Origin: Octopus sinensis
Lineage: Eukaryota
Reading direction: 5' to 3'
Assembly (NCBI RefSeq): GCF_006345805.1
Contig: NW_021835601.1
Coordinates: 1 to 26,078 of the forward strand
DNA: 26,078 bases
Shown here: piece after piece, positions 1,491 to 1,594 of the stretch
Numbering within the stretch: position 1 is the stretch's first letter
How the letters are laid out: every line of letters begins with the position of its first letter
Translations under genes and position numbers: made by a program
The notes under the pieces: model-generated
What the model saw: the letters and a program-made list of their open reading frames with translations, nothing else
What the model was told of the DNA's origin: nothing
Databases searched by the model: none

Positions 1491-1594
1491 GTTTTTTACT
1501 GATGAAGTGTAACCTATGGTAGATTAGCTTAATTTAATTTAATTAAGCTAATTTAATCATTAATGACACAGAAACGTTGCAACGTCTAAAAGAT
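1491..1594 (+). ncRNA. Type I hammerhead ribozyme-like motif (array copy 2)
   Basis: CTGATGA 1499-1505, long stem II including a 14-bp hairpin (1521-1534 with 1541-1554), GAAA 1571-1574, GTC 1584-1586, 8-bp stem I. Confidence 0.72.

Follow-up and report, generated by a model that had tools for sequence, protein, structure and literature searches.

Hammerhead ribozymes have been described in two kinds of mobile element that bear on the locus reported here. Those of PLEs (Cervera and de la Pena 2014, PMC4209133; Lunse et al. 2017, via PMC6765202) carry an additional nucleotide after A9 and before a G-C pair, an enlarged helix II of 7-8 bp and a small palindromic helix III, and are predicted to act as dimers. 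PLE insertions have a layout that comprises a partial tandem, an adjacent inverted copy and a microsatellite target (PMC8557442). Cleavage by PLE hammerheads is reported to be slow (PMC4209133); one of them needs its protein, and cleavage was found to be dispensable for PLE insertion in vitro (PMC11167929). According to the first of these sources, the stem III of metazoan hammerhead motifs is typically 1-2 bp (PMC4209133). The non-LTR retrozymes of metazoans (PMC7229834; bioRxiv 10.64898/2026.07.22.740005) are non-coding, low-GC tandem elements with units of a few hundred bases, each unit bearing one type I hammerhead with a palindromic helix III. In frogs, retrozymes homologous to PLE termini are reported (bioRxiv 10.64898/2026.07.22.740005). 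Of nine predicted retrozyme dimers in the same study, one cleaved in vitro and the other eight did not (Li et al. 2026, bioRxiv 10.64898/2026.07.22.740005).

The pair at 10.1-11.1 is given as the most conserved beside the hammerhead core (PMC3088659). U.U at this place is a published natural core variant and is described as the best tolerated mispair (Perreault et al. 2011, PMC3088659), and a U.U mismatch is also found at the helix II base of the axolotl hammerhead HHR_Amex2 (PMC7229834). In the search of Perreault et al. (PMC3088659), matches mispaired at 10.1-11.1 were rejected by rule unless tested.

The octopus motif shares with PLE hammerheads, as far as their published descriptions were available, the nucleotide between A9 and G10.1, an enlarged helix II, a palindromic helix III, predicted dimer action and, in its tandem, inverted copy and TA ends, the insertion layout. 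It differs from them in having a second A between the G-C pair and G12, a helix II region of 65 nt and no attached PLE ORF; in addition, helix III is full (a 12-nt palindrome forming a 4-bp stem in the monomer), whereas that of the PLE min-HHR is absent or reduced to the 15.1-16.2 pairs. The unit that carries the motif fits the non-LTR retrozymes by its size, GC content and non-coding nature. Unlike those described in the available text, it has A.A instead of a pair or U.U, an internal loop 2 with a 45-nt hairpin cap, and a stem III of 4 bp within a 12-nt palindrome. Like the U10.1.U11.1 variant, the motif begins helix II with a non-Watson-Crick apposition while the rest of the core is intact; A.A is not named in the available text of that paper (PMC3088659). 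Palindromic stem III, dimers and retrozymes are already known, as is the nucleotide after A9; the new part is the second A, on the side of A1570. No A.A mismatch at 10.1/11.1 was found in print, although Lunse 2017, Weinberg 2015 and the alignments of Perreault Dataset S1 might contain A.A or a long stem II, and the literature consulted yielded nothing on cephalopod hammerheads.

Hammerhead fold at 1491-1594

The window, a stretch of 26,078 nucleotides from Octopus sinensis (contig NW_021835601.1), contains on its forward strand, at 1491-1594, a motif that had been proposed in an initial annotation as a hammerhead of unusual topology with a stem II of about 65 nt. This proposal was borne out: exactly 65 nt lie between CUGAUGA and GAAA, each of the helices named was found, and the core is intact. 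Stem I pairs 1491-1498 with 1587-1594 (8 bp, including two G.U) and is followed by the core CUGAUGA (C3-A9, 1499-1505), in which no common variant occurs in the family. The stem II region (1506-1570) begins and ends with the unpaired A1506 and A1570, which flank stem II on its core side and face each other at 10.1/11.1. Within it, a 4-bp helix, GUGU/ACAC (1507-1510/1566-1569), leads to a 5x5 internal loop (1511-1515/1561-1565) and a 45-nt capping hairpin (1516-1560), which consists of a second helix, AUGGU/AUCAU (1516-1520/1556-1560), a bulged U1555 and an AU-rich 14-bp hairpin (1521-1534/1541-1554) with a 6-nt loop. GAAA (1571-1574) leads into the perfect 12-nt palindrome of stem III (1574-1585) and C17 (1586), and cleavage is predicted between 1586 and 1587.

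All type I core elements (C3-A9, G12-A14, A15.1-U16.1 and H17) are present, and helices I, II and III surround the core with helix I open, as in the type I layout. Three features of canonical type I hammerheads are lacking: a Watson-Crick 10.1-11.1 pair, a terminal rather than internal loop 2, and a match in Rfam, which found no hammerhead in the window at gathering or at E<=10. The motif was filed as a variant, and not as a canonical hammerhead, because A1506.A1570 stands in place of the Watson-Crick pair. The silence of Rfam, together with the rejection of 10.1-11.1 mispairs in the Perreault 2011 search (PMC3088659, in the available text), agrees with the suggestion of the initial annotation that such a variant could be missed by standard descriptors. 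The Penelope-type kinship that it had drawn also holds, the motif being a hammerhead variant of the Penelope or retrozyme kind. Chance was excluded by a control with 20,000 dinucleotide shuffles, made from the 476-nt unit: a relaxed type I match turned up in 12 of them and an equally good match in none. The stretch 1491-1594 is read here as a real, apparently selected type I hammerhead variant, with self-cleavage as a prediction.

Stem II had also been considered abnormally long. Its length of 65 nt stands, yet the core-side part is a canonical 4-bp helix, beyond which comes an internal loop capped by a hairpin, and the 14-bp part of this cap forms in every prediction (pairing probability 0.97-1.0). 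The 5x5 internal loop may be the working ‘loop 2’, possibly pseudoknotted to 1489-1493, in which case the 45-nt hairpin would merely cap it. The candidate pseudoknot is a 5-bp helix on the forward strand between the far end of stem I (1489-1493) and the 5' strand of the internal loop (1511-1515), which are perfect complements (-3.4 kcal/mol); pseudoknots at this place in stem I align stems I and II in many hammerheads. The common variant A1511G leaves a G.U in the candidate helix. As the complementarity has a chance probability of 4-9% and no two-sided change accompanies it, the pseudoknot is treated as a lead only. The same helix also forms in the modelled inactive nested fold (MFE) and could act as an off state. 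A pattern combining the long stem II with A.A gave seven matches in a viral collection, none of which had both a stem I of at least 4 bp and stem II. Among the metagenome matches listed, 1 of 119 had both and was treated as chance, and none of the viral and metagenome matches listed resembled the unit by blastn.

The A.A apposition and a phage hammerhead family

The two A's beside the core had been described as extra and unpaired. Both are present, but the reading as two independent insertions was dropped in favour of a single non-canonical apposition, A10.1.A11.1, on comparison with a phage family of type I hammerheads in IMG/VR that interchanges states at this place. When IMG/VR was scanned with a pattern for the A.A junction and a short stem II, 23 matches were obtained, and of these 13 adopt a complete type I hammerhead fold (L009, L011, L013, L015, L016, L021-L025 and L027-L029; nine distinct). 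Control patterns gave no complete hammerhead fold (G8C, 0/8; U.U, 0/11; A-U, 0/11). A search by flank, with the junction left free, gave at least 120 loci, and at least 38 of those among L180-L299 are family members (at least 33 distinct) with conserved extended stem I flanks. Among the 33 distinct members listed, the 10.1/11.1 state is A.A in 14, G-C in 12, U.U in six and C.A in one, which makes A.A the commonest state listed, and A.A is followed by G-C in all 14. Since A.A interchanges with G-C and U.U in this family, it occupies the position of the 10.1-11.1 pair. A1506.A1570 is best read as an A10.1.A11.1 mismatch in place of the usual G-C pair, and may act as a non-canonical first step of helix II. 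The report that U.U is the best tolerated mispair implies that A.A may cost activity.

Several phage members (e.g., L009, L015, L023 and L024) have a junction identical to that of the octopus motif, CUGAUGA-A-G...C-A-GAAA. Unlike that motif, the phage hammerheads combine a short stem II with a 4-6 nt loop, a stable non-palindromic stem III and a GC-rich extended stem I. The phage family is covarying and independent of 1491-1594, with an unrelated periphery, and its cleavage is likewise a prediction. Because there is no similarity outside the core, the two are probably convergent at A.A. Rfam gave no hammerhead match on the phage loci searched (20 loci at gathering, eight at E<=1). A tRNA was observed near two loci of the family.

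Variants of the A.A type are likely undercounted. A bolder proposal is possible, although we would put it at rather less than even: A10.1.A11.1 would be an undescribed, fully active third solution for the helix II base, reached independently by animal retrozyme and phage families, and, with an internal loop 2 pseudoknotted to stem I and a long capping hairpin, would form a class discarded by descriptor and Rfam searches, so that invertebrate retrozyme censuses would miss whole high-copy families. An A.A apposition extends the range of sequences that the best-studied ribozyme takes in nature, at a position regarded as near-invariant and used as a rejection filter in genome searches, and the phage family offers a matched natural series (G-C, U.U and A.A) for probing the role of the 10.1/11.1 step.

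Tandem element and its family

The hammerhead motif occurs five times at the locus, once per unit, with four copies on the plus strand and one on the minus strand. A direct tandem array (710-2759, plus strand) contains 4.3 units of 467-480 bp (about 470 bp) with 97% matches and 34% GC, and an inverted copy of about 1.1 units (196-709, minus strand) abuts its 5' end. The hammerhead of the inverted copy (326-429, minus strand) is identical to copy 2 at 1491-1594. Among the other plus-strand copies, copy 1 (1021-1124) has an extra C in helix II and a hairpin one base shorter, copy 3 (1967-2074) has a 3-nt insertion after the core and a 1-nt insertion in the palindrome, through damage or read error, and copy 4 (2439-2541) has an apical loop one base shorter. 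The array copies differ mostly by 1-nt indels, which are possibly read errors. At 275 and 587 (equivalent to 1645 and 1333 in copy 2), almost every public contig departs from the window. The change at 275/1645 is common to all full copies of the locus, whereas that at 587/1333 is in three copies and absent in two, so the array is a mosaic.

The element is bounded by (TA)n runs at its left (196-205) and right (2760-2782) outer ends. Directly after the right run, 2782-2812 looks like what we take to be the terminus of a Helitron-type non-autonomous element, and a repeat of very high depth lies in the left flank, at about 30-125. A fold-back read artefact was ruled out by the differing outer flanks and by head-to-tail joints in other runs. 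Matches to miRNA-like Rfam entries at 657-796 correspond to the inverted junction and not to genes.

The available text of bioRxiv 10.64898/2026.07.22.740005 defines retrozymes by tandem units of which two or more in succession carry a type I hammerhead; this is found here, in a non-coding unit that lies within the range of tens to hundreds of bases and below 45% GC. The unit contains no frame of 100 aa. Pfam gave no match above cut-off in 83 of the 105 window frames of at least 62 aa, nor in the three frames of that length that touch the element. An ORF with RT and GIY-YIG beside a pseudo-LTR, as in an autonomous PLE, was not found in the window, nor was a PLE partner, and a simple pattern found no Pol III A or B box. 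The array, the inverted copy and the TA ends match the PLE layout of PMC8557442, as far as that source was available, and were counted in favour of a Penelope-driven retrozyme; the outer ends, which are about 93 nt apart in unit coordinates and not the 30-40 nt of the PLE tail, were counted against it. The unit is likely a non-LTR retrozyme with a Penelope-type layout, moved by a Penelope-like retrotransposon. The locus offers a retrozyme insertion that is young and clean and carries an inverted copy of the Penelope type; it bears on how retrozymes move, and also on whether dimer-only cleavage protects monomer circles.

At least half of the unit's words are contained in 20 listed runs (10 studies, four organism labels), one of which may be the source of the window itself; no RNA run is listed among them. 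Four runs, three of them deep, were compared with the inverted copy. Each deep run placed 7,043-14,172 contigs, mostly 90-99% alike (flanking repeat included). The family is multi-copy, with thousands of such contigs per run, and may be dispersed. One variant contig had a depth of 1,351, against 33 for a flank contig; depth differs from copy number, and summed depth was not taken as such. Every part of the unit is represented among the contigs, which also link its end to its start, and the loose ends listed inside it involve 1-8 contigs each and share no common exit. In three runs, 102-200 is covered by a contig of flank depth that goes on for about 410 letters away from the element, as would be expected of an empty site. 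Run X9, taken as RNA by a guess, contains contigs over the unit; one of them ends near the cleavage site, but this end is uninformative, since the contig and its neighbour share a 30-base graph overlap there.

Among 38 of the 40 differences (those listed), 36 lie in the unit, and a difference was called common when it reached at least 5% in at least two of the three deep runs. Common substitutions numbered 27 among the differences listed, and five of these fall in the hammerhead: two in stem III and three in the internal loop (A1511G, U1564A and G1565A). The 77 positions that make up the core, A.A, stem I and stem II contain none of the 27 (P about 0.009; outside rate 22 in 369), with the proviso that palindromic AT-rich sequence can hide variants. 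A1570 varies in 0-4% of depth and A1506 in less than 1%. In stem III, U1577A and A1582U would each make good the pair lost through the other and so preserve the palindrome; their unphased shares in the three deep runs differed (22 vs 10%, 40 vs 46% and 60 vs 41%). A 2-nt insertion, in 8-25% of depth, converts a stem I U.G to C-G. The common variants spare the core and the helices and, in stems I and III, take forms that preserve pairing; this was counted in favour of a maintained ribozyme.

Proposed dimer action and competing explanations

Stem III had been described as self-complementary with a 2-nt loop. The self-complementarity is perfect over 12 nt, but a 2-nt loop cannot close, and the monomer stem comprises 4 bp with a 4-nt loop (-0.9 kcal/mol). 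Two palindromes form a duplex of 12 bp (-17.9 kcal/mol). When two natural copies are folded as one transcript (1015-1600), their palindromes have a probability of 0.95 of pairing with each other and the monomer hairpins vanish; for the monomer stem III the probability is 0.28 when folded by itself, about 0.1 in the unit context and 0.0 in the dimer. Calculated without tertiary terms, folding as a double hammerhead gains 14 kcal/mol over two monomers, but this constrained active dimer lies 6 kcal/mol higher than the MFE, in which stem I is unformed. Stem I is predicted to be nearly unformed in the unit context as well (P about 0.0-0.01), and the active fold of the 104-mer alone lies 0.7 kcal/mol above its MFE. 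The earlier suggestion that the motif is active only in multimers was thus upheld in part: dimer folding is favoured, but the monomer may be active as well, because its stem III, at 4 bp, is longer than that of the typical metazoan motif (PMC4209133, in the available text). Dimer action is the likelier route in tandem RNA, where cleavage is predicted.

The explanation that we favour, with moderate confidence, is that each unit of a non-coding tandem element of 470 bp, probably a non-LTR retrozyme that a PLE moves, contains the motif as one type I hammerhead, for which cleavage of multi-unit transcripts after C1586 is predicted, mainly in the form of a double hammerhead linked by the stem III palindrome. 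Neighbouring copies would swap stem III strands to form the 12-bp helix, and cleavage would then follow, releasing 470-nt monomers that could circularise; the natural monomer between cleavage sites (1117-1586), folded as a circle, has an energy of -124.5 kcal/mol (z -5.4, 60 shuffles). RNA longer than one unit may be copied by reverse transcription and integrated into AT-rich DNA by a PLE protein acting in trans. Alongside the outer ends, the single cleaving dimer among nine retrozymes and the slow or protein-dependent action of PLE hammerheads were counted against this explanation. So were the position of the active dimer above the MFE and its nearly unformed stem I, the possible cost of A.A to activity, the unequal shares of the two stem III variants and the unrelated periphery of the phage family.

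The same hammerhead might instead work well as a monomer, its 4-bp stem III stabilised by a pseudoknot between loop 2 and stem I, so that the dimer would be optional. This seems unlikely given the low probabilities of the monomer stem III, the retention of palindromic bases in the stem III loop, and a pseudoknot within the reach of chance and with no two-sided covariation. Less likely still is a ribozyme crippled by its A.A and its long insertion, which would then have lost its cutting and been copied passively with a successful repeat. The strong conservation of the 10.1-11.1 pair (PMC3088659), PLE insertion in vitro without hammerhead cleavage (PMC11167929) and the eight uncleaved retrozyme dimers (bioRxiv 10.64898/2026.07.22.740005) would all, as reported in the available texts, accord with such a loss. 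Against it stand the common variants, which avoid the core and helices and include the pair-preserving changes in stems I and III, and the prevalence of A.A among the listed members of an independent, covarying phage family.

A different question is whether the unit is a free-standing retrozyme family at all or the pseudo-LTR of an autonomous PLE (e.g., a microsatellite-targeting Neptune type) amplified without its ORF. The inverted 5' copy, the TA target and the unequal outer ends are PLE signatures in the available text of PMC8557442, and the frog retrozymes give a precedent for homology to PLE termini (bioRxiv 10.64898/2026.07.22.740005). However, contigs span the whole unit with its end joined to its start, the loose ends listed (1-8 contigs) lack the common exit, and no RT or GIY-YIG match occurs within the window; we regard the pseudo-LTR explanation as improbable, to about the same degree as a crippled ribozyme.

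Several other features of the window were observed. At 14503-14549 (plus strand) there is a second, unrelated hammerhead of the classic PLE minimal form, with CUGAUGA at 14508, one extra A, a 5-bp stem I, a 5-bp stem II with a 10-nt loop and no helix III loop. At 16824 (minus strand), a short hairpin capped by GAAA, and then another GAAA, come after CUGAUGA; this may be a decayed hammerhead. A 267-aa open frame at 18343-19146 (plus strand), for which Pfam gave no match at E 0.01, contains a knuckle-like Cys-X2-Cys-X4-His-X4-Cys motif and presumably resembles a LINE ORF1 or gag-like protein. SINE-like tandem repeats of 184/300 bp lie at 15168-15996 and 19417-19761.
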